Of a stretch of DNA of 55,336 nucleotides, positions 4,893 through 29,879 are shown piece by piece. The notes under the pieces are model-generated. The model was not told the DNA's origin and did no database searches. It saw only the letters and a list, made by a program, of their open reading frames with translations. The position numbers and the translations under genes are program-made. Each line of letters begins with the position of its first letter. The stretch's first letter is position 1. Source of the stretch: a virus (lineage: Duplodnaviria > Heunggongvirae > Uroviricota > Caudoviricetes); IMG/VR virus record IMGVR_UViG_2541047870_000005, one strand, 5' to 3'.

Positions 4893-5374
4893 GACAGAAG
4901 CCCTCCCACCGTTTTACTGATATCGCTTAAGGCTGATGTTGCCGTTCCCTGCAGATTATTCAGCTGCGCACTGAGATCACCGAACATATCGGACAGGGAT
5001 TCATCCACCCGTTTGAGCGACAGGGTGAACTCAATCCGGCGCGGCATACCGTCGCGGAAAAACTCCGTTTTAGTCTGATTCAGTCCCTCAATCACATACA
5101 TGCCGTAAATCGTGCCGCTGCCTTCAATCAGAGGCCATGCTTTCCCCTGTTCTGCCATCTGCTCCAGTGCCAGCAACGACAGCCTGCCGCCTGTTATCTC
5201 CGGCATAAGAACACCGGAAAGCGTCAGCATGTCGTTGTCCGGTCCCAGAAACTGCGTGGACGGACGACGATTTACCCGGCTGTTAGCCGCATGTCGCCAG
5301 CTGCGCTGATACTGCAGTTCCTGATACGGCACGGTGCGCAGCATAAACACGTACAATCCCAGCACCATCATCAT
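4889..5374 (-). CDS. U: P2 gpU-like tail protein
   Basis: 161-aa ORF between tape-measure gene and D, 4-bp overlaps typical of a P2 late operon. Confidence 0.7.
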   Translation of the reverse strand: MMMVLGLYVFMLRTVPYQELQYQRSWRHAANSRVNRRPSTQFLGPDNDMLTLSGVLMPEITGGRLSLLALEQMAEQGKAWPLIEGSGTIYGMYVIEGLNQTKTEFFRDGMPRRIEFTLSLKRVDESLSDMFGDLSAQLNNLQGTATSALSDISKTVGGLLS

Positions 5375-8300
5375 GCGTCGTATCCCCCCTGATCGCTGTA
5401 GTTACTCCTGGCCTTTGCCTTCAGCCTGCGTTCACGTTCATCAAGCTGGCGGGCCACCTCCCGCGCAATATCCTGCGCACTTTGTCCTGGCTGCGTCTGG
5501 ATGATGATCTGCGTCGGTGCCTCAATCCTGTAAACGGGCGGCACAGTGGCTGCGCGACTCACAATTGCTTCTCCACCTTTCGCGGGAAGTGCCAAAGGGT
5601 GCAACGGTGGAAGCTCTGCTGGCGCGGCAGCAACTCCCATCATTCCGGTAACAACGGCAGCCAGTGCAGCTGTATTTTTCCGGCTGGTCACATTTGCCGG
5701 GCCGTTAACAATTTCCGGCCCGTTTTCACCGACGATGCCAAACTGCCCGCGCGGGATATACCCGCCGCTGTCATACATCCCCGCAAAGCCATATCCCCAT
5801 GATGGAAAACCACCCGATGGCATCATCACTTTACCGTCTGCATTCACCGTCGCAGGTTGCTGACGCGTCACGCTTTCCGGCAGTTTTGCCTTTGCGACCT
5901 CTTTACTGACAATGCCGAGCTTCTCCAGCAACCAGGAAACGCCGGATTTCAGGGAGTCCAGCGGATGCATGACCATATTTAGCCCTTCCGCCAGTGCCTC
6001 CCCGAATCGTCGCCCCATTGCCGCTGCACTCTGCAGTTCGGCAGAGGTCGACTTAACGGGCGTCAGCAGATCAGTAAACCAGCCCCACAGCGCCTGTACT
6101 TTGTCGCCAATCCACTGGAACACGGGCTTAAGCGGTTCGAATGCTTCACTGACGGGACCTGCCGCCGCTTTGAATCCCTCCACCACGCCACCAAGAAATG
6201 CGGTGATGGGTTGCCAGTATTTCCAGACAACCAGCGCCACGCCCACCAGTGCAGTAACCACAAGACCTATCGGACTGAGCAGAGCACCTAACAGACCAGA
6301 TACGGCATACAGGGCAACGCGCAGCATCGCCAGTGGACCAGATGCCAGTACTCGCAGCACCGTGCCTGCGGCGGCCAGTCCACCGCGCAGTACCGCCAGA
6401 GGATTCATAAACATCACAGCAACAGCACGTAAACCGGATAATCCAGACCGCAAAAGTGCAACCGGCGCACCTGCTACAGTTTTCAGGACATTTCCCGTCA
6501 GTAATGCCGTGCGGCGCAAAGACGACAACGGCGCAGTAAGTAAACCTGCGGCGTTGCCCGATGAAGCAAGCCCGCGTCGCAGCAGTGCCAGTGGTGCGCC
6601 AGCCAGCCAGGACAACGCGCTGCTGGTTCGGGTTACTGCTGCCGTAACGGAAGGTAACGTTTTGATACCCAGCACAGAGAATCCCAGACGAATCACTGCC
6701 AGCGGCCCCAGCACTGCAGCCAGCGCCACCGCTAAGGTTCCGAGGCCTACGGTAACCGCAGCCACCACAGCGGCTACTTTCATCAGTGTGCCTGTCAGTT
6801 CCGGGTTAGCTTCCACCCAGCGGCGCAACGCCCCCGTGATGCTTTTCACCGTGTACAGAATATCCATCAGCGGCTGGCGCAGCGTTTCGCCCAGGCTGCT
6901 GAAGGTGTTCTGCGCTCCGGTTTTGACCAGCAACCACTGCGCAGAAAGTGAGTCCTTGTTAATGTCGGATTCTTTCTGCATGGAGCCGAGCGCATCATTG
7001 CCCGCTGTCAGTTTTAGCTGGCGCTGCAGTTCCGGCAGGTTGTTTGCCAGTTTCGCCGCGTCATCGCCAAACTCTTTACCAAACAACATGGTCATGGCAG
7101 ACAGACGTTTATCCTGCGGCAGTGCGTTCACCTTCTCCAGTACGCGCTGGATAGTTCCCATCGCATCCTTCGTCATCTGCTTTTCAATCACTTCAGGATT
7201 GAGTTTCAGCAGATTCATCCCTTCAAAGAAACTCTTGCTTTGCATGGTGGCAATGGACAATTCACGCACCATCGCGTTTGCTGCACTGGCTGCAACCTCT
7301 GGCGCAGCGCCCAGTGTCAGAAAGGTGGAACCCAGCGCCGCCGCTTTACGATAATCCAGACGATCAGCCACACCGCCCAGGCGTTGCATGACATCAATGA
7401 TGTCTGCCCCTTTCGACATGGCGTTATCATCCAGATAGTTCAGCGCATCACCGAGCTGTTCAATATTGCGGGTAGGAATTTTGTAGAGCTGGGCGATTTT
7501 CCCCAGACTTTCTGACAGTTCATCCGCTGGCAGCTCAAAGGCTGTTGCCGCCTTTGCTGCCGTACTGGCGAAGGCCAGCAGGTCACGTTTCTGGTCCTCC
7601 CAGCTGTCGTCAGGGTTTGCGACGTTCATGCGCGCCCCACCTTCAACCAGTGCAGCGAAATCCACCGCACCGTTTTCCATCGGCAACTGTTCGCTGGCAG
7701 CCTTGATGGCATCCTGCATTTCATAAAAACGTGCAGTGCGGTTGCCATTATCGTCACGCAGACCATTGACCTGCTTTGCCACACCTTTCATGGCATCTTC
7801 CATGCTGGTATAGCTTTTTACTGCCGCCATCACTGGTGCGCCCATTGCCAGCCCTGCAGCCGTGGTGGTGGCTCCGGCACCTGCAATACGATCGCGCACC
7901 TCCAGCGAACGGGCATAACTGGCACGCGCTGCATTCATCCTGCGCTGAGCTTCCCCCAGTCGCTTCAGCCGCGCCTCCTGTTTCGAAAGTTCCTGGTTAT
8001 AACGTGATGTTTCACGGGCTAAACGGGCAGTTGCTCCCGCATCATCTTTCGCAGAAATTCCCGCCCGGTACAGTTCAGCACGCACAAGCGCCGTTTGCTT
8101 CTGCAAATATTTTTGTTGTTCTTCCAGGCGTTGGACTGCCAGCGTTTGCCGACCTAAAGCCACAAGATGCCTTTGTGATGGTTGCTCCATCGCCTCCAGC
8201 TCAGAGCTAAGCAAATTAGCCTTCTGTCTGGCATAGTTCAGCCTGTCGCCTAACTTCTTGTTATCAGCCTGCAGCTTGCGAAATTTTTCCAGGCTGTTAC

Positions 8301-21805: not shown

Positions 21806-23572
21806 ATGAACACCACACTGACACCCGCAGATCTCGATCCCCGTCGGCAGGCCATGCTGCTGTACTTTCAGGGATACCGCGTAGCCCGCATTGCTGAAAT
21901 GCTGGGCGAGAAAGTTGCAACCGTTCACAGCTGGAAAAAACGCGACAAGTGGGGTGACTATGGGCCGCTGGATCAGATGCAGCTCACCACCGCCGCACGC
22001 TACTGCCAGCTCATTATGAAGGAGCACAAAGAAGGGAAAGATTTCAAAGAGATTGACCTGCTGGCGCGCCAGTCTGAGCGCCACGCGCGGATCGGCAAGT
22101 TTAACAATGGCGGCAACGAAGCCGACTTAAACCCTAACGTCGCCAACCGCAATAAAGGCCCACGCCGTCAGCCGGAAAAGAATGTTTTCACCGATGAGCA
22201 GATTGAGAAGCTGGAAGAAATCTTCCATTCTTCCATGTTCAACTACCAGCGCCACTGGTGGGAAGCAGGAAAAACCAACCGCATCCGCAACCTGCTGAAG
22301 TCACGCCAGATCGGCGCGACCTTTTACTTTGCCCGTGAAGCCCTGATTGACGCCCTGCTTACCGGACGTAACCAGATTTTCCTTTCTGCCAGTAAGGCAC
22401 AGGCCCATGTCTTCAAACAGTACATCATCGACTTTGCCAAAGAAGTGGAGGTGGAGCTGAAAGGCGATCCGATGGTGCTTCCTAACGGGGCCACGCTTTA
22501 CTTCCTCGGCACCAATGCCCGCACAGCCCAGAGTTATCACGGCAACCTGTATCTGGATGAATATTTCTGGATCCCAAAATTCCAGGAGTTGCGCAAAGTG
22601 GCTTCCGGTATGGCTATTCACAAGAAATGGCGACAGACCTATTTTTCCACGCCATCCAGCCTGACCCACAGTGCTTATCCGTTCTGGTCCGGTGCGCTGT
22701 TCAACCGTGGACGCAACAAAGCCGACAAGGTGGACATCGACCTGTCCCACAGCAATCTTGCCCCCGGCCTGCTGTGCGCAGACGGGCAATACCGCCAGAT
22801 AGTCACCGTGGAAGACGCGGTGCGCGGCGGCTGTAACCTGTTCGACCTTGACCAGTTGCGCATGGAGTACAGCCCGGATGAATACCAGAACCTGCTGATG
22901 TGCGAGTTCGTGGACGATCTCGCGTCCGTGTTTCCGCTCAGCGAACTGCAGGCGTGCATGGTGGACAGCTGGGAAGTCTGGACCGACTTTCATGCACTGG
23001 CCCTGCGCCCGTTTGGCTGGCGCGAAGTATGGATCGGTTATGACCCGGCGAAAGGTACGCAGAACGGCGACAGTGCCGGATGCGTGGTGGTGGCTCCGCC
23101 AGCCGTGCCGGGCGGTAAGTTCCGCATTCTTGAGCGTCACCAATGGCGCGGGATGGACTTCCGCGCCCAGGCGGACGCCATCAAAAAACTGACCGAACAG
23201 TACAACGTGACCTATATCGGCATCGACTCGACAGGTGTAGGTCACGGGGTTTATGAGAACGTGAAAGCGTTCTTTCCTGCCGTCCGGGAGTTTGTTTACA
23301 ACCCCAACGTTAAAAACGCCCTGGTACTCAAGGCCTACGACATTATCAGCCACCGCCGTCTGGAGTTTGACGCCGGGCACACCGACATTGCGCAGTCATT
23401 CATGGCAATCCGTCGCGCCACCACCGCCAGTGGCAACCGCCCAACCTATGAAGCCAGCCGCAGCGAAGAAGCCAGCCACGCCGATCTGGCCTGGGCAACA
23501 ATGCATGCACTGTTTAATGAACCGCTGCAGGGCGAATCCGCCAATACCAGCAATATTGTGGAGATTTTTTGA
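21806..23572 (+). CDS. P: Terminase ATPase (large) subunit gpP-like
   Basis: 588-aa ORF divergent from O, followed by the portal gene with a 4-bp overlap. Confidence 0.85.
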   Translation: MNTTLTPADLDPRRQAMLLYFQGYRVARIAEMLGEKVATVHSWKKRDKWGDYGPLDQMQLTTAARYCQLIMKEHKEGKDFKEIDLLARQSERHARIGKFNNGGNEADLNPNVANRNKGPRRQPEKNVFTDEQIEKLEEIFHSSMFNYQRHWWEAGKTNRIRNLLKSRQIGATFYFAREALIDALLTGRNQIFLSASKAQAHVFKQYIIDFAKEVEVELKGDPMVLPNGATLYFLGTNARTAQSYHGNLYLDEYFWIPKFQELRKVASGMAIHKKWRQTYFSTPSSLTHSAYPFWSGALFNRGRNKADKVDIDLSHSNLAPGLLCADGQYRQIVTVEDAVRGGCNLFDLDQLRMEYSPDEYQNLLMCEFVDDLASVFPLSELQACMVDSWEVWTDFHALALRPFGWREVWIGYDPAKGTQNGDSAGCVVVAPPAVPGGKFRILERHQWRGMDFRAQADAIKKLTEQYNVTYIGIDSTGVGHGVYENVKAFFPAVREFVYNPNVKNALVLKAYDIISHRRLEFDAGHTDIAQSFMAIRRATTASGNRPTYEASRSEEASHADLAWATMHALFNEPLQGESANTSNIVEIF

Positions 23573-24600
23573 TGGGAAAGAGTAAGAAAAACCGCGCTGC
23601 GGCGACGAATCAGCTCAAGCATAAAAGCCAGACTTCAGCCGAAGCATTCAGCTTCGGTGATCCCGTTCCTGTTCTGGACCGCCGCGAACTGCTGGACTAT
23701 GTGGAATGCGTACAAACAGATCGCTGGTATGAGCCTCCCGTCAGCTTTGACGGACTGGCGCGAACCTTCCGCGCCGCCGTGCATCACAGCTCACCGATTG
23801 CAGTGAAATGCAACATTCTGACCAGCACCTACATCCCTCACCCGCTGCTCAGCCAGCAGGCTTTTTCACGTTTTGTGCAGGACTATCTGGTATTTGGTAA
23901 CGCCTACCTGGAGAAACGCACGAACCGGTTCGGTGAAGTTATCGCCCTTGAGCCTGCTCTGGCAAAATACACCCGACGCGGGTTAGACCTGGATACCTAC
24001 TGGTTTGTGCAATACGGTATGACAACCCAGCCGTATCAGTTCACGAAAGGCAGCATTTTTCATCTGATGGAACCGGACATCAACCAAGAGATCTACGGCC
24101 TGCCAGGTTATCTTTCTGCCATCCCGTCAGCCCTGCTCAACGAGTCCGCCACACTGTTCCGCCGTAAGTATTACATCAACGGCAGCCATGCAGGTTTCAT
24201 CATGTACATGACCGATGCCGCGCAAAACCAGGAGGATGTGAACAACCTCCGCAATGCGATGAAAAGCGCCAAAGGTCCAGGCAACTTCCGCAACCTGTTT
24301 ATGTACTCGCCTAACGGCAAAAAGGACGGGCTTCAGATCATCCCATTGTCAGAAGTCGCGGCGAAGGATGAATTTCTTAATATCAAGAACGTGAGTCGGG
24401 ATGACATGATGGCAGCGCACCGCGTGCCGCCTCAGATGATGGGGATTATGCCTAATAATGTTGGGGGGTTTGGGGATGTGGAGAAGGCTAGTAAGGTTTT
24501 TGTCCGCAACGAGTTGATACCGCTGCAAAAGCGAATCAAAGAAATTAATGAATGGTTGAGTGATGAAATAATCTCTTTCCTACCATATGAATTACAATAA
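23569..24600 (+). CDS. Q: Portal protein gpQ-like
   Basis: 343-aa ORF, size and position of P2 Q. Confidence 0.85.
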   Translation: MMGKSKKNRAAATNQLKHKSQTSAEAFSFGDPVPVLDRRELLDYVECVQTDRWYEPPVSFDGLARTFRAAVHHSSPIAVKCNILTSTYIPHPLLSQQAFSRFVQDYLVFGNAYLEKRTNRFGEVIALEPALAKYTRRGLDLDTYWFVQYGMTTQPYQFTKGSIFHLMEPDINQEIYGLPGYLSAIPSALLNESATLFRRKYYINGSHAGFIMYMTDAAQNQEDVNNLRNAMKSAKGPGNFRNLFMYSPNGKKDGLQIIPLSEVAAKDEFLNIKNVSRDDMMAAHRVPPQMMGIMPNNVGGFGDVEKASKVFVRNELIPLQKRIKEINEWLSDEIISFLPYELQ

Positions 24601-24627
24601 AATAGGGCAGATACTGCCCTATTTTAA
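24601..24627. terminator. Bidirectional rho-independent terminator between convergent portal gene and cargo operon
   Basis: aaaa-tagggcag-atac-ctgccctat-tttt: 8-bp stem, 4-nt loop, A-tract on one side and T-tract on the other. Confidence 0.7.
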
Positions 24628-25476
24628 CCAAATATTATAATCCAATCTTTCTACGTATCTTGAAATAACGGCTAGAGCAATTGCTTGCCCTACACTTGTT
24701 AGTTCAATTCCTTGATAGTTGCTCTTTGAAAATTTTTCTAAAAATGCAGACACATGAGGGGCAACTAACTTAAGATTTGAAATATACGCACTCTTATCTT
24801 TTATATCAGTCGGATATTTATCCATGAAATAGTCTTCAACATCTATCCCTAAAAAAGTATTCCATGAACAAGCCCCTGCATATTGAATGTGATATATCTG
24901 GGCTTGAGACAAATTAAACCCATTAGTATACATTGGTTCAAGATTTCTAAAATTGCGCTCCAACAAATCCAATCGAACACCATTAACAGGATCTTTGATC
25001 TCAACATTCTTGAGAAGAAAAACTATCGTTATAAGTGATATTTGTTGCTGTGTTAACTTTGGAACTACAGTAACTGCCTCCGTTAAAACTATATCTCTAA
25101 AATCGTCATTGTTATTGGAGACTCGTTCAACTAACAACTGAGAAAGCACATCCATATTAGCTTTCTTTCCCTTCCTGGCTGATGACTTTAATGCCTCAGT
25201 CAATGTCGCCTGAACGTCCGGATCGCAAAATTTATCAATAATCAATCTATCAACGTTTTTTGTTAAATCCGAAACGACACGCTCTTCAAAATCTTTTGCA
25301 TTCTCTTGAGCTGCAGCATAAGCAACATCTTTCAATTTTGGGAACTGATTTTCGAAGAGAATGTTGAATAGTTCTCTAACCTCGGAAAACGACATCCCTG
25401 AAACATTTACATTATTTCCAGCTTGAATTGCATACGAATTATTACCTATTTGTTGCTTTTGTTTATCACTAAACAT
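24619..25476 (-). CDS. Hypothetical 285-aa protein, AT-rich cargo between portal gene and cos-like site; second gene of a two-gene operon
   Basis: Long AT-rich ORF 9 bp downstream of the small membrane-protein gene; no recognisable motifs. Confidence 0.7.
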   Translation of the reverse strand: MFSDKQKQQIGNNSYAIQAGNNVNVSGMSFSEVRELFNILFENQFPKLKDVAYAAAQENAKDFEERVVSDLTKNVDRLIIDKFCDPDVQATLTEALKSSARKGKKANMDVLSQLLVERVSNNNDDFRDIVLTEAVTVVPKLTQQQISLITIVFLLKNVEIKDPVNGVRLDLLERNFRNLEPMYTNGFNLSQAQIYHIQYAGACSWNTFLGIDVEDYFMDKYPTDIKDKSAYISNLKLVAPHVSAFLEKFSKSNYQGIELTSVGQAIALAVISRYVERLDYNIWLK

Positions 25477-25485
25477 ATATCCTCC

Positions 25486-25731
25486 TTATTTTTTATCACC
25501 TGTATTTATACAATCAATTTTAATATCACCGCCAGCCTGGACACCAATTGAATTATCACCAACTGATTGACTCATAGAATTATATTTATTTTTTGTAGTG
25601 ATAAGTAATCCAGCTAAAGCGCTAACTGCAGCCAAAAATGCAACAATAGAATCAAAACCAGGATCCATATAAAGCCATAATCCAGCAATCAATGCCAGTA
25701 TACATGTAATGACTATTGCAAAAATTTTCAT
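25486..25731 (-). CDS. Small membrane protein (81 aa, two predicted TM helices); first gene of the cargo operon
   Basis: Hydrophobic segments IFAIVITCILALIAGLWLY and IVAFLAAVSALAGLLIT; C-terminal motif resembles the N-terminus of the downstream protein. Confidence 0.6.
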   Translation of the reverse strand: MKIFAIVITCILALIAGLWLYMDPGFDSIVAFLAAVSALAGLLITTKNKYNSMSQSVGDNSIGVQAGGDIKIDCINTGDKK

Positions 25732-25785
25732 AAGTTCTCCTTCTAATGGAAGTGGTTATACCGAAAACAATTTCCTTTTACAACC

Positions 25786-25935
25786 ACGCTCAGCGCGCGC
25801 TCGTATCCCCGCCACGCCTGCCCGCTTTGTATAGCGGTTTTCATGCACTCGCATGGCATAAGGGAAACCTTGCCAGAACTGGCGACCCTCAGCGAAAACG
25901 ATCTTCAAACGATCATGCGGATTCATGCAGCATAG
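25786..25935. other. Putative prophage cos (packaging) region
   Basis: GC-rich non-coding segment homologous to 42890-43033; minus strand reads GGCGTGGCGGGGA, matching my recollection of the P2/186-family cohesive end. Confidence 0.5.
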
Positions 25936-26138
25936 ACAGGCACTACTGAGCAATAGCGCTTGAGTTCAGTCAGATATGAGTCCTCAATGTAATACTAATA
26001 CATCTTAACCGTTCATCATTATTCACATCGGGCTATGTAATTACAGAAAAACTTTTCACAATCAATTTTATACTGGATTATTTCAGTTTATTGTATAATT
26101 CATGACGCATGCAAATTGACATTAATTCAGGAGACAAA

Positions 26139-27050
26139 ATGACATTAATTGTAGCTGGTTTCGAAAAAGATGGAACAATTGTTTTTTGCGGGGACTCACT
26201 AATAACAACAAAAGCAAATGGAAGCACTGTAAAATTGACATCGTCCTTTAGAAAAATAATACCACTAGAAATTATTGTGCGAGTACCGGAAATCGATCCA
26301 AGTGGAAAAATCATAAATTACATTGAAAGCCTTTGCCAACATCGCTGCATGATTGCATTTGCAGGAAGCACGCTAGTTTCTCAACATATTATAAATTCTA
26401 TACAAGGTCATCTGAAACAAATAAAATACACATATGATTCTGGCACATATGACTATTCAGAAGGATGCATAAAGGGTGCTGGCTATAAGTTAATAATGGG
26501 TTGTGAAGATAACAAAAGCGTTGAGGAAACCTATTGGAACGAAGATATGTTTGTTGAGCCAGTAAAGAATGCGAACGAACTTATTAATAAAAATTTTCTA
26601 CGCAACGTCTTTAGCCACTGCATACAGAAAACCATGAATGAATTTTACATTAATATTAATGAGGAATTTAATCCAGAGTGGTTTGCAAGCGATTTCATTG
26701 TAGCTCTGTCTTGCTATGAGACTAAAAAAAACCATCTTTTTACCTTTAAAATGGAATTTAATGAGTCAGGGGTCAATCTTATAGAAAAAGAAATTAATAT
26801 CAATGAACTGGCAATAATTGGCATTTCAAGATATAGCGAAGAAATAATTCAAGCATATCAAACTCAAAAAGCGACCCTCAGTACATCTGAAATTCTCAGC
26901 CAAGAGATTACTAAAGCAATCATAGACAATGAAAGCATTGATCTTAGAGAAATAGGAGATCCTGTCGTATTAAAAAAATTCAATCAACATCGTGAATTAC
27001 GTGATGAGCAAAAACACTGGAGGTGCAATACTCCTCGAGAAAACCAATAA
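26139..27050 (+). CDS. HslV/proteasome beta-subunit-like (Ntn-hydrolase fold) protein, about 303 aa, AT-rich cargo gene
   Basis: SD aggag 5 nt upstream of ATG 26139 (ORF track starts at 26109); MTLIVAGFEKDGTIVFCGDSLIT...VKL...IAFAGST...LAIIGISRYSEEIIQAY parallels HslV [21 protein letters not shown]...KK...AGFAGGT...LIAIGSGGPYAQAAARAL (recalled from memory). Confidence 0.5.
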   Translation: MTLIVAGFEKDGTIVFCGDSLITTKANGSTVKLTSSFRKIIPLEIIVRVPEIDPSGKIINYIESLCQHRCMIAFAGSTLVSQHIINSIQGHLKQIKYTYDSGTYDYSEGCIKGAGYKLIMGCEDNKSVEETYWNEDMFVEPVKNANELINKNFLRNVFSHCIQKTMNEFYININEEFNPEWFASDFIVALSCYETKKNHLFTFKMEFNESGVNLIEKEININELAIIGISRYSEEIIQAYQTQKATLSTSEILSQEITKAIIDNESIDLREIGDPVVLKKFNQHRELRDEQKHWRCNTPRENQ

Positions 27051-27123: not shown

Positions 27124-27312
27124 CTAACCGAGAAGATCCATTGAGCGGTTGTATTCGTGGCTTCTGATTTTTGCCATGAGTTCATCAGTCAATTCAGAAA
27201 CCCACTGCAGAGCCAGCCCCTTCTCTTCATCATTACACTCACTAGCCGCTACAAGCTTAAGAAAAAAATCAATGCGCTGGAGCTTCAAAGACTCCAAAAA
27301 ATAGTCCTGCAT
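27124..27312 (-). CDS. Small hypothetical protein (62 aa) downstream of replication gene A
   Basis: Short AT-rich ORF; no motifs. Confidence 0.35.
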   Translation of the reverse strand: MQDYFLESLKLQRIDFFLKLVAASECNDEEKGLALQWVSELTDELMAKIRSHEYNRSMDLLG

Positions 27313-27464: not shown

Positions 27465-29879
27465 TTAATACAGATCCCGCCACTTATCATCTTCCTGCAA
27501 ACGCTGGTTCCGATAGAAGATACGCAGGCCTGCTCCTGACGGAATACTGCCGCCGCGAAGGAGTAAATCGACCTCTTTCTCGCTGCCATCAAATCCTCTG
27601 GACTTCAGTTCATAGACGAGCTGCTGTCGCTGATGGTCTGTAATTCGCTGTTTGTAGTCTTTACGCCGTTTCGGTTTCACCAGGCGTAACCTTGCAGCCA
27701 GTTCCCGGCGCTCTTTTTTGCTCATACTGTGCAGGTAATCGTGCAACTCCTTGTCATCCATGCGGGTAATGTCCGTTCTGGTATCCCCATCAGCTGATTT
27801 GTCTTTCCCTTGTTGGTTCAAATTTTCAGCAAGGGGACAGTTATTGCCACGAGTCCAAGGGGCGCAAGCGCCCTGGTCGGCTGCCGCCTCCTGAACGTCA
27901 ACGGCCTTACGAACCATTTTCCACTTCACCGCATGAGTGCAGATCTTGCCCTCTGCAATGGGTGACCAGATGCCATAAATACGAATACCGTGATCGCCAT
28001 AGGCGGTCGGTTCTTCGTTGATTTCATAAGCAGTTCTGATGAGGTGATATTTGCGGGGAACCAGTACGCCGCCCTGCTTCATGATGTAGGTGGCAAAACA
28101 ACCAGCATCAGCAGCAGCCAGGATTGCATCAAGGCGCGGGTTATCCAGTACCGGCGCACCTGCTTTTTTGTCCCCCTGTTGCCTTGCCGCCTGACCAGCC
28201 AGCAATCGCAGTTCACGGTAAGCCTGACGCCCCGGAATGCCAAAGAAGCGGAATTGCTGAACACGATGCAGAGACGCCCAGGCATTAACGTATTCAGCGT
28301 TATCACGCAGGGATTTACCCGTTTCCTTGCTGATCTCGCCAGCCAGACCACGCCCGTCAATGTTCTTACTGATGTATTTCGCGATGTAGCTTGTTGGCGT
28401 ACCTTTGCGCGGGTTTATCAGCTCAGACTTAAAGCGTGGTCCCGTGTTATTACCCAGCTCCTCGCGGTCTTCACGAATGGCAAACTTACGCAACAAAGCA
28501 GTAATGGTGCGGCGATCTTTTTTGCGCATAAAACACAACAGATGCCAGTGAACTGTACCGTCATGATGCGGCTCAGCCACCCGCACGCCATACCAGCGCA
28601 ATCCGGCTTTGTGCATCGCCTTACGAAATGCAGCAAACATGCCGACCAGATAATCACTGCTTTGTCTTACCGTCGCATTTGTCCAGGTCGGGTTGGGCCT
28701 GCCGTTATTTAGCGTGGAATGGAAACGTGACGGACAGGTGATGGTGTAGAAAACGGCGCAGTCACCGCGCATTTCCGCGATAAGCTCCAGACCTTTAACA
28801 CAGGCCATCATCTCATTGCGGCGATGCGCAGGGTTGCTGCTGCTGGCGTTTACCACATCCTCCATGTCCAGCGTGTCGCCGTCTTCGTTCACCAGTTCAT
28901 GAGAACGGAAAAACTCCAGTGACTTGCGGCGCTGCTCACGTTTATGCATCACGGCTTCATAGCTGACATAGGGAGATGCTTTTTTGCTGACCAGGCAAAC
29001 AGCACGCAACTGCTCTTCCCGCCATTCGCAACGCATCTTCCACAATTTCCGATACCACCAGTCGGCGCACAGCATACGCGCCAGCGACCCCGGAATGAGT
29101 TCATAGGGCACGGGTTTACGGCGGTTTCTTTTCCGGCGGAGTTGCTCAAACGCAGGCGGTATGACATCCAGTCGCAGGGTTTCTGCTGCCACCTTTTCCC
29201 ATGTCTTGCGGATTTCTTCTGGCTTAACATCATCGGTGGCATACAAATCGCCACAAGCAGCATCAAGGCACATGCTCATATGCGCAGCTACCAAGGTGGA
29301 CAGGCGTTTCACCTGATCCTGACTCATTTCAGGCAGAATCAGCAGGCCATCCAGCCCTTCATGGCTTGCCATAAAGCGAAAAGAAGTGGATAGCTGACTG
29401 TCGCGTACATGCTCCAGCCGTTCCAGACATGGCTTAATCGTCTCACGCAAATAGCGGGAATAAGCCTTTGGCCTGCCCAGGCTGCTGAAGTATTCAATAC
29501 GTTGCATCAGCGGCTTGCTGATATGGGAAGGCTGGGCGTTAACGTCCGCCAGAATGACCATGTCTGGATTAAAACGCTGCTGCTCATGCGCCAGCTTTGC
29601 CCAGCTAATGAGCTTATCCTGCTCCATTTCGCGTTGGACAGGATCACGGGATTCATTAAAGAAATAACGCTCCCAGACCTGAGCACTCAGTGCCTCGCGG
29701 CGCAGCTGTTCCTGCTCGTTATCGGCAGCGTACAGAGTGATCAGGTTTGAAAGCGCAGAAACCGGCGCGACTTCCGCCGGGTCCAGATAAGGGTTAATGG
29801 CCTTTTTCGGGCTGTTCCATGAGAATGCTGCGGCGGCCTCGTTAAAGCCGCTGCAGTTGTTCATATCAGCATGGCTCAT
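27465..29879 (-). CDS. A: Replication initiation protein gpA-like (rolling-circle endonuclease)
   Basis: 804-aa ORF in the position of P2/186 A; contains YIAKYISK-type tyrosine motif. Confidence 0.8.

Follow-up and report, generated by a model that had tools for sequence, protein, structure and literature searches.

A two-gene cassette beside cos in a P2-like prophage: a candidate defence module whose membrane protein and soluble partner share a terminal motif

The window analysed here is a stretch of 55,336 nucleotides of a Caudoviricetes virus (IMG/VR record IMGVR_UViG_2541047870_000005) with P2-like gene order. Because the flanking ypjA gene is 100% identical to that of Escherichia coli, the prophage host is E. 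coli. Between the portal gene Q (23569-24600) and the cohesive-end site cos (25800-25818), with gene A following at 27465-29879, lies a cassette (24619-25731) of two minus-strand open reading frames (ORFs), of which the upstream one encodes a small protein of 81 aa and the downstream one a large protein of 285 aa. This cassette is probably a so far undescribed anti-phage system, in which both globular parts are new while the proposed signalling logic is known from other systems. The features of the locus are as follows.

25486..25731, minus strand: gene 1, encoding an 81-aa helical hairpin protein predicted to lie in the inner membrane (ORF, AlphaFold2 (AF2) model, charge pattern, 256-protein family, phrog_27656)
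24619..25476, minus strand: gene 2, encoding a 285-aa soluble all-alpha protein of the LPO_1073/Vpar_1526 family, the presumed sensor (NF045477, PF28206, AF2)
25513..25581, minus strand: putative effector-side motif, small-protein aa 51-73, NSMSQSVGDNSIGVQAGGDIKID, core G-V-Q-A-G (family conservation, hhalign, BLASTP)
25402..25467, minus strand: putative receptor-side motif, large-protein aa 4-25, DKQKQQIGNNSYAIQAGNNVNV (invariant residues, low pLDDT, motif alignment)
24598..24626, no strand assigned: 13-bp hairpin terminator between the convergent Q gene and cassette, overlapping both stop codons (terminator scan, sequence)
25755..25783, minus strand: candidate sigma-70 promoter, TTGTAA, 17-nt spacer, TATAAC (by eye; 17 bp from cos, inside variable cassette DNA)
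25800..25818, minus strand: cos cohesive-end site, the cos-side edge of the slot, reverse complement GGCGTGGCGGGGATACGAG (14 of 19 positions identical to P2 cosL)

A preliminary description of this DNA had proposed an AT-rich operon of a two-helix 81-aa protein and a 285-aa protein with 9 bp between them, and this agrees with the ORF list, with the GC content of the ORF pair (0.34; 0.32-0.39 over the interval versus ~0.55 in Q, P and A) and with the hairpin in the AF2 model. Its estimate of about 1.2 kb between portal gene and cos, as opposed to near-adjacency in P2, was also correct: the Q-to-cos distance is 1,199 bp in the window versus 167 bp in reference P2, where the tQ terminator is the sole item between cosL and Q. 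The Shine-Dalgarno sequences read from the DNA are strong for both genes, AAGGAG (25742-25737) for gene 1 and AAGGAGG (25487-25481) for gene 2. Because the latter overlaps the stop codon of gene 1, translational coupling of the two genes is suggested. The terminator had been called bidirectional; a hairpin does span both stop codons and is near-palindromic by eye with T-rich tracts on both sides, so that bidirectional use is plausible, but the terminator scan calls it on the minus strand. The candidate promoter was not called by the consensus promoter scan, and its region is cassette-specific and not conserved among relatives. The cos core matches 76 P2-family phage records.

The large protein had been described as having no motif that could be placed. 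This does not hold, since it belongs to the NCBIfam family NF045477 (LPO_1073/Vpar_1526; 244.7 bits versus a cutoff of 45, E 1.2e-72, aa 27-284), is covered by PF28206 like all of its homologues, and carries a conserved N-terminal motif; it also matches phrog_19542. Its relatives form ~190 clusters of uniform length (283-296 aa) and ~40% identity from many phyla, and RefSeq gives the family name to copies that are 97-99% identical to the large protein. The AF2 model (pLDDT 81, pTM 0.76) is all-alpha, with pLDDT below 50 for residues 1-24, and structure comparison of this model detected no fold relative. Variability is highest at aa ~150-255, and the N-terminal half and a C-terminal helix (LTSVGQAIA) are highly conserved. 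Scans with Pfam, NCBIfam and PADLOC found no NTPase, TPR, GreA/B or PIN domain. Assignment to the T4 Cef family failed (PF24050, 16.6 bits versus a cutoff of 27, E 0.007, aa 122-167; phrog_1354, E 0.0012). The Cef-like sub-threshold match at 24976-25122 (aa 119-167) comes from two independent libraries and falls on the conserved stretch LSEAVxVVPKLTxxQI. A literature search found the name 'LPO_1073' in no paper and 'Vpar_1526' only in a proteome table (PMC5491611), according to which Vpar_1526 was detected in membrane-fraction preparations of Veillonella parvula. This fits membrane association via a partner.

The small protein consists of a first transmembrane helix (TM1, ~aa 2-22), a short acidic PGFDS loop, a second helix (TM2, ~aa 26-44), a basic linker and a tail of ~35 aa. 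The AF2 model shows a helical hairpin (helices 2-22 and 26-44, pLDDT ~90) and is unstructured from residue 45 onwards. Because the loop is acidic and the linker after TM2 basic, which is the positive-inside pattern, the protein is predicted to sit in the inner membrane with both termini in the cytoplasm. A search with the single 81-aa sequence finds only three near-identical clusters, so that a profile is needed; this profile retrieves 256 proteins, almost all of 77-86 aa and essentially none with a Pfam domain. Annotation pipelines often miss the ~80-aa gene (e.g. in Burkholderia locus L008, 4714-4992, and in several other loci), and therefore the family is under-represented in databases and has no Pfam entry. 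In PADLOC, Pfam and NCBIfam the small protein has no significant family. Matches to SLATT, 2TM effector, holin and Wzy profiles were rejected as reflecting transmembrane composition only; assignment to the CBASS/Pycsar-type 2TM effectors and to SLATT failed (PADLOC 2TM effector, E 0.027; CARF_TM, E 0.022; NCBIfam SLATT_1, 13.6 bits versus a cutoff of 41). Chance ORFs are ruled out by family conservation (the NF045477 match and the 256 small-protein homologues).

The two genes occur together far beyond this prophage. We inspected ~24 full-length loci of the large-protein family, and each of them has, directly upstream on the same strand, an ORF of ~80 aa that either adjoins the 5' end of the family gene or runs into it (gap -14 to +14 nt). 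The plan of this upstream ORF is constant throughout: TM1, PGFDS loop, TM2, basic stretch and a tail of the form Q.Q.V..S.GIQAG[RG]D..[IV]. At least eight phyla are represented, the lineages being Alpha-, Beta- and Gammaproteobacteria, Chlorobi, Planctomycetes, Acidobacteria, Bacteroidetes and Desulfobacterota. Carriers include E. coli, Klebsiella, Vibrio, Burkholderia, Comamonadaceae, Nitrospirillum and Methylocystaceae, as well as Chlorobiaceae, Kuenenia/Brocadiaceae, Bryobacterales, Polaribacter and Desulfomonile. In a reverse check on four small-protein genes the family gene was found directly downstream of three, the fourth being an orphan. We regard it as virtually certain that the pair represents a real conserved module. 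Outside P2-like phages its neighbours include Shedu, IetAS, Mrr, GmrSD, Cas1, restriction-modification and ParDE genes, integrases and genes of type IV secretion systems.

Two loci depart from the simple pair. The orphan, in a Rhodocyclaceae metagenome-assembled genome (locus L114, 4001-4240), has an intact motif and adjoins a Schlafen/AlbA_2 gene; neither a Vpar_1526 partner nor a remnant of one is present in the 610 bp downstream. In Nitrospirillum viridazoti (locus L022, 2702-4849) a single small gene precedes a tandem pair of Vpar_1526 paralogues, whose N-terminal motifs read AIQAGGD and AIQAGNN.

The two proteins of the pair have in common a motif of ~23 aa with a G/A-phi-Q-A-G core, which is placed in the C-terminal tail of the small protein and at the N-terminus of the large one. 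When the two families are aligned with hhalign, tail positions 52-75 match N-terminal positions 7-30 over 24 columns (probability 96.8%, E 2.8e-10), and BLASTP of the two window proteins alone gives an E value of 3e-4. The signature G-phi-Q-phi-G (as G-[IV]-Q-A-G) is present in 46 of 48 small proteins, and A-[ILMV]-Q-A-G in all 32 large proteins compared. The latter start with DKQ.Q.....S.AIQAG[RG]D[VI], where Q8, A16, Q18, A19 and G20 are invariant among the 32 homologues. The NCBIfam domain model begins at aa 27 and leaves out this segment, which is part of an unstructured extension at the N-terminus. The motif is rich in G, Q, S, N and V, both copies are unstructured or of low confidence in the AF2 monomer models, and when the window is translated in all six frames the pattern is confined to these two ORFs. 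The motifs of cognate partners resemble each other more than those of non-cognate partners (BLOSUM permutation p 1.5e-4), and at the R/G position after QAG (+3) 77% of cognate pairs agree versus 43% expected, both values being confounded by shared phylogeny. We consider it quite probable that the motif mediates direct pairing of the two proteins.

In order to place the cassette among its relatives, we compared 80 IMG/VR contigs with a Q protein at least 93% identical, in 77 of which both Q and cos could be placed; together with the window this gives 78 intervals. In the 77 relatives Q and cos are 508 to 3,487 bp apart; the minimal spacing of P2 does not occur among them. Among the 78 intervals there are 55 unrelated cargo types, every one with a GC content of 0.31-0.43, and nearly all of their ORFs are oriented against Q. 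Recognisable cargo domains are retron-type reverse transcriptases (4), AbiU/AIPR (4), GmrSD (3), PIN (3), DprA-like (2), SieB (2), TIR (2) and Schlafen/AlbA (2), and further cargo comprises a Cap4 nuclease, ThsB-TIR, AbiEii-type ATPases and KAP NTPases. Because 55 AT-rich cassettes, including known defence genes, have been swapped here, the Q-cos interval is a defence-cassette slot. The expectation of the preliminary description that related prophages have variable cargo at this position is thereby borne out.

The borders of the slot are sharp. The cos 19-mer is 99-100% conserved in the 77 relatives, and identity falls to random (~0.27) within ~10 bp on its Q side, at or below 25789; at the far edge the variability begins in the last ~40 nt of Q. 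Promoter region and terminator must therefore come with each cassette. An integron-like promoter that belongs to the slot and is conserved among the relatives is ruled out, as conservation ends within ~10 bp of cos. The cassette of the window, with its own promoter region, two genes and a terminator, is best explained as a self-contained, horizontally mobile unit.

The slot lies within the gpA-gpQ hotspot of P2 phages defined by Rousset et al. 2022 (PMC9122126), as the cassette is located between the portal gene gpQ and the replication gene gpA, adjoining cos, and the content of this place varies among close relatives and includes known defence systems. Table S5 of the same study carries the pair only as 'hypothetical + hypothetical' (PMC9122126). 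The preliminary description had equated the position with the tin/old region. This was right as far as the hotspot and its variability are concerned, but the cassette occupies a separate slot on the Q side, and old and tin of P2 must lie on the A side of cos because P2 has nothing but tQ between cos and Q. The A-side cargo differs among the carriers of the cassette, one of which has the 3HP system (Hp1-3 at E ~1e-240) there; therefore the Q-side cassette is a unit independent of the A-side cargo.

The cassette is rare. It was found in 7 of 5,426 complete E. coli genomes, always between Q and cos, and in 2 of the 78 sampled intervals, and a blastn search against the INPHARED phages gave no match. 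A core gene of P2, which had been considered as a possible refutation, as well as lysis genes, are ruled out by this rarity together with family conservation. In a P2-like prophage of Klebsiella the same slot is filled by a homologue of only 40% identity. An 81-aa ORF in cargo type 6 was considered as the same small protein with another partner and turned out to be unrelated. Because the slot is rich in defence genes, Klebsiella has captured the module at the same place, and defence genes are neighbours elsewhere, an anti-phage role of the cassette is likely.

Which known systems does the pair resemble? PADLOC and Pfam searches, as had been recommended, gave no defence model for either protein, PADLOC 2.0 has no model for the pair, and neither the deep-learning survey of amyloid signalling motifs nor a 2026 review mentions it. 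The earlier label of a pair of unknown type is thus accurate with respect to PADLOC and Pfam defence models, but it misses that this is a widespread conserved module with a motif like those of RHIM and BASS3. RHIM, the fungal PP motif and BASS3, one of the bacterial amyloid signalling sequences (BASS), all have G-phi-Q-phi-G (Dyrka et al., bioRxiv 10.1101/2020.01.06.895854), and so has the small protein of the pair described here. The layout likewise corresponds to that of amyloid signalling pairs, with a motif of ~20-25 aa at the C-terminus of the effector and at the N-terminus of the receptor encoded by the adjacent gene in ~24 loci. The BASS3 Bell/NLR pairs of Actinobacteria and Cyanobacteria, whose relatives are fungal PP (HELLP) and metazoan RHIM, also have the effector gene upstream, overlapping or abutting that of the receptor, and the motif first C-terminal and then N-terminal; in Saccharothrix the two ORFs overlap by 4 bp (Dyrka et al., bioRxiv 10.1101/2020.01.06.895854). 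They differ in that their receptor is an NB-ARC/NACHT NLR and their effector a Bell protein, neither of which is found here. Furthermore, BASS motifs were reported to be restricted to multicellular bacteria (Dyrka et al., bioRxiv 10.1101/2020.01.06.895854), whereas the present pair occurs mainly in unicellular Proteobacteria, in other phyla and in a temperate phage.

The Bab/Agp pair (BASS11) of E. coli ECOR25 has been shown experimentally to act by abortive infection (Ibarlosa et al., bioRxiv 10.1101/2024.11.07.622273), and beta-breaker mutations in either motif abolish its activity (bioRxiv 10.1101/2024.11.07.622273). Like the present pair, which is known from sequence alone, it consists of adjacent genes in prophage or defence-island DNA of E. 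coli. They encode a small membrane-targeting effector (~100 aa) with a C-terminal motif of ~20 aa and a larger sensor whose extreme N-terminus carries this motif too; it is G/N/Q-rich and unstructured before activation. The effectors differ: Bab is soluble, a helical domain resembling Bell, and moves to the membrane, while the small protein here is a constitutive two-TM hairpin. The Bab residues named in the text of that paper (I87-G88-S89-V90, Q92, D99, N100) do not fit the I-G-V-Q-A-G-G-D register, and by this comparison with the residues named there our motif probably belongs to a family other than BASS11. We thus propose by analogy that the pair works like an amyloid signalling pair, and do not assign it to a named BASS family.

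The other systems of the gpA-gpQ hotspot (old, tin, 3HP, 2TM-1TM-TIR and others; PMC9122126) are likewise AT-rich swappable cargo of the same hotspot. The cassette differs from them by its position on the Q side of cos, by having no PADLOC match and by co-occurring with an A-side 3HP system in sister strains.

RexA/RexB of lambda is a prophage-encoded pair of a soluble sensor of ~280 aa and a small polytopic membrane effector, which acts by membrane depolarisation and abortive infection. Unlike the small protein described here, RexB has four TM helices; PADLOC, Pfam and fold searches detected no sequence or fold similarity between the two systems, and we know of no terminal motif shared by RexA and RexB.

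Modelled on HET-S/NWD2, Bell/NLR and Bab/Agp, we propose the following mechanism. The soluble protein would sense infection through its variable C-terminal half and self-associate, whereupon its N-terminal motifs may nucleate a cross-beta (amyloid-like) fold. This fold would template the cytoplasmic tails of the membrane protein, and the clustered hairpins would compromise the inner membrane, so that the cell is killed or arrested before phage release. The amyloid-signalling part of this proposal is suggested by the matched motif at the C- and N-termini, by its core, by the gene order and by the disorder of the motif in both models; that the pairing is amyloid templating in particular seems to us possible, at somewhat less than even odds. 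To the whole, a sensor and a membrane effector coupled by motif templating and causing abortive infection, we assign by this analogy a probability of about 0.45.

Several observations weigh against it. The receptor is neither of the NLR/STAND nor of the TGP type, Pfam, NCBIfam and fold searches reveal no NTPase or oligomerisation domain in it, and the effector, being a constitutive two-TM hairpin, is not of the Bell/HeLo/Hell, TIR, CHAT or PNP type. The core on the large protein is A-I-Q-A-G and not G-phi-Q-phi-G, and the co-variation of the two motifs is modest (identity p 0.02) and confounded by shared phylogeny. Although the central signature of RHIM, PP and BASS3 is present, the Pfam models of RHIM and PP (Ses_B) match neither protein at E <=1, which is a weak negative as models of such short motifs are insensitive. 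The commonest E. coli allele changes two of the most conserved motif residues of the small protein (G63A, G67R) and leaves the partner motif unchanged. Finally, several chromosomal loci are situated amid housekeeping genes, e.g. in Burkholderia between genes for a glutathione S-transferase (GST) and MarR. The allele just mentioned (NZ_CP148585.1 and others; 97% DNA identity) reads NSTAVQARGD where the window has NSIGVQAGGD. It could be attenuated or inactive, or else the motif core tolerates the change.

The main rival is a stable, non-amyloid interaction of the motifs, e.g. by beta-strand pairing, which would tether the soluble protein permanently to the hairpin, either in a toxin-antitoxin-like module or in a membrane-anchored complex of some different activity, and could be defensive in the absence of templated conversion; in the toxin-antitoxin form a small hydrophobic toxin would be held by the large protein and freed on infection. 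A shared motif and its cytoplasmic placement fit simple heterotypic binding equally well, but a homotypic design, in which both partners bear one motif, is usual for templating and not for lock-and-key binding, and the motif is unstructured in both monomer models. An effector which, unlike Bab, is already in the membrane needs no relocalisation, the large protein has no oligomerisation domain that we could find, and its relative Vpar_1526 was recovered in V. parvula membrane fractions (PMC5491611). The translational coupling suggests stoichiometric co-production as in toxin-antitoxin pairs, whereas the length, the composition and the G-phi-Q-phi-G core of the motif are those of known amyloid signalling motifs. 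On balance, we consider such tethering unlikely, though less so than either a role outside defence or pure exclusion.

A module without a defence function, i.e. a moron or housekeeping pair for membrane stress, signalling or regulation that is merely carried in the P2 slot, is improbable: the slot of the sister phages is overwhelmingly filled by defence genes, and the module itself is patchy and rare (the 7 E. coli genomes mentioned above), AT-rich and independently captured at the same slot in Klebsiella. It also recurs beside Shedu, Mrr, Iet and integrases, and these features taken together are what one expects of mobile defence cargo. Superinfection exclusion, in which the two-TM protein would block DNA entry without cell death and the large protein would be an accessory or regulator, is still more improbable, for although small membrane proteins such as T4 Imm and P22 SieA do block DNA entry at the inner membrane, the small protein has a fitting size and predicted location, the cassette is prophage-encoded and SieB-family genes occupy the same slot in sister phages, such proteins are normally phage- and host-specific, whereas the architecture of the pair is invariant over at least eight phyla and at non-phage chromosomal sites, which argues for a generic intracellular mechanism, and a conserved matched motif on the soluble partner has no obvious role in blocking injection.

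Some further observations concern the surroundings of the cassette and its carriers. On the A side of cos the window has a second AT-rich cargo candidate (26109-27050, plus strand), a 313-aa ORF that matches phrog_25719 (E 4.5e-133), has no PADLOC, Pfam or NCBIfam family and gives a weak N-terminal match to a PHROG of HslV-type peptidases (E 0.013). Sister strains hold other genes at this site, including the validated 3HP system. Adjoining gpA is a 62-aa ORF (27124-27312, minus strand; phrog_698, E 3e-37). Relatives have an equally long ORF (189 nt, 'hypothetical protein') beside a DinI-like gene; no DinI-like ORF is evident between cos and A in the window. The cassette and the 3HP system occur together with P2-type head, terminase, portal and gpA genes on two E. 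coli 'plasmids', both circular (NZ_CP148585.1 and NZ_CP148400.1; 55.6 and 55.2 kb), which may represent a phage-plasmid or else a P2-like element that is episomal or mis-binned. In the closest E. coli relative (NZ_CM168005.1, locus 4972-5997) the cassette is 99.2% identical, and the annotation treats the neighbouring portal gene, which has an internal stop, as a pseudogene; this prophage may be defective while its cassette stays intact.

Whatever the mechanism, this P2 lineage has on the Q side of cos a cassette slot with sharp borders, fixed orientation and very high turnover of its content. For PF28206/NF045477 a testable function is now proposed, and a family of ~80-aa membrane proteins is revealed. 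With ~1.2 kb, two genes, E. coli as host and its native promoter, the system is easy to handle and would suit the study of motif conversion and of killing by the hairpin. If the proposed mechanism is true, no immune signalling pair of the amyloid type that is smaller or more widespread would be known, and signalling by templated motifs would depend neither on NLR or TGP receptors nor on multicellularity of the bacterium. More tentatively, the pair might represent a new broad class of RHIM-like amyloid or prion-like modules, whose partners are neither NLR, TGP nor Bell proteins. Such a class would combine a transmembrane executioner of ~80 aa with a sensor of ~285 aa and novel fold, its receptor could duplicate against a single effector as in Nitrospirillum, and amyloid-templated immunity would reach ordinary unicellular bacteria of at least eight phyla as well as temperate phages.

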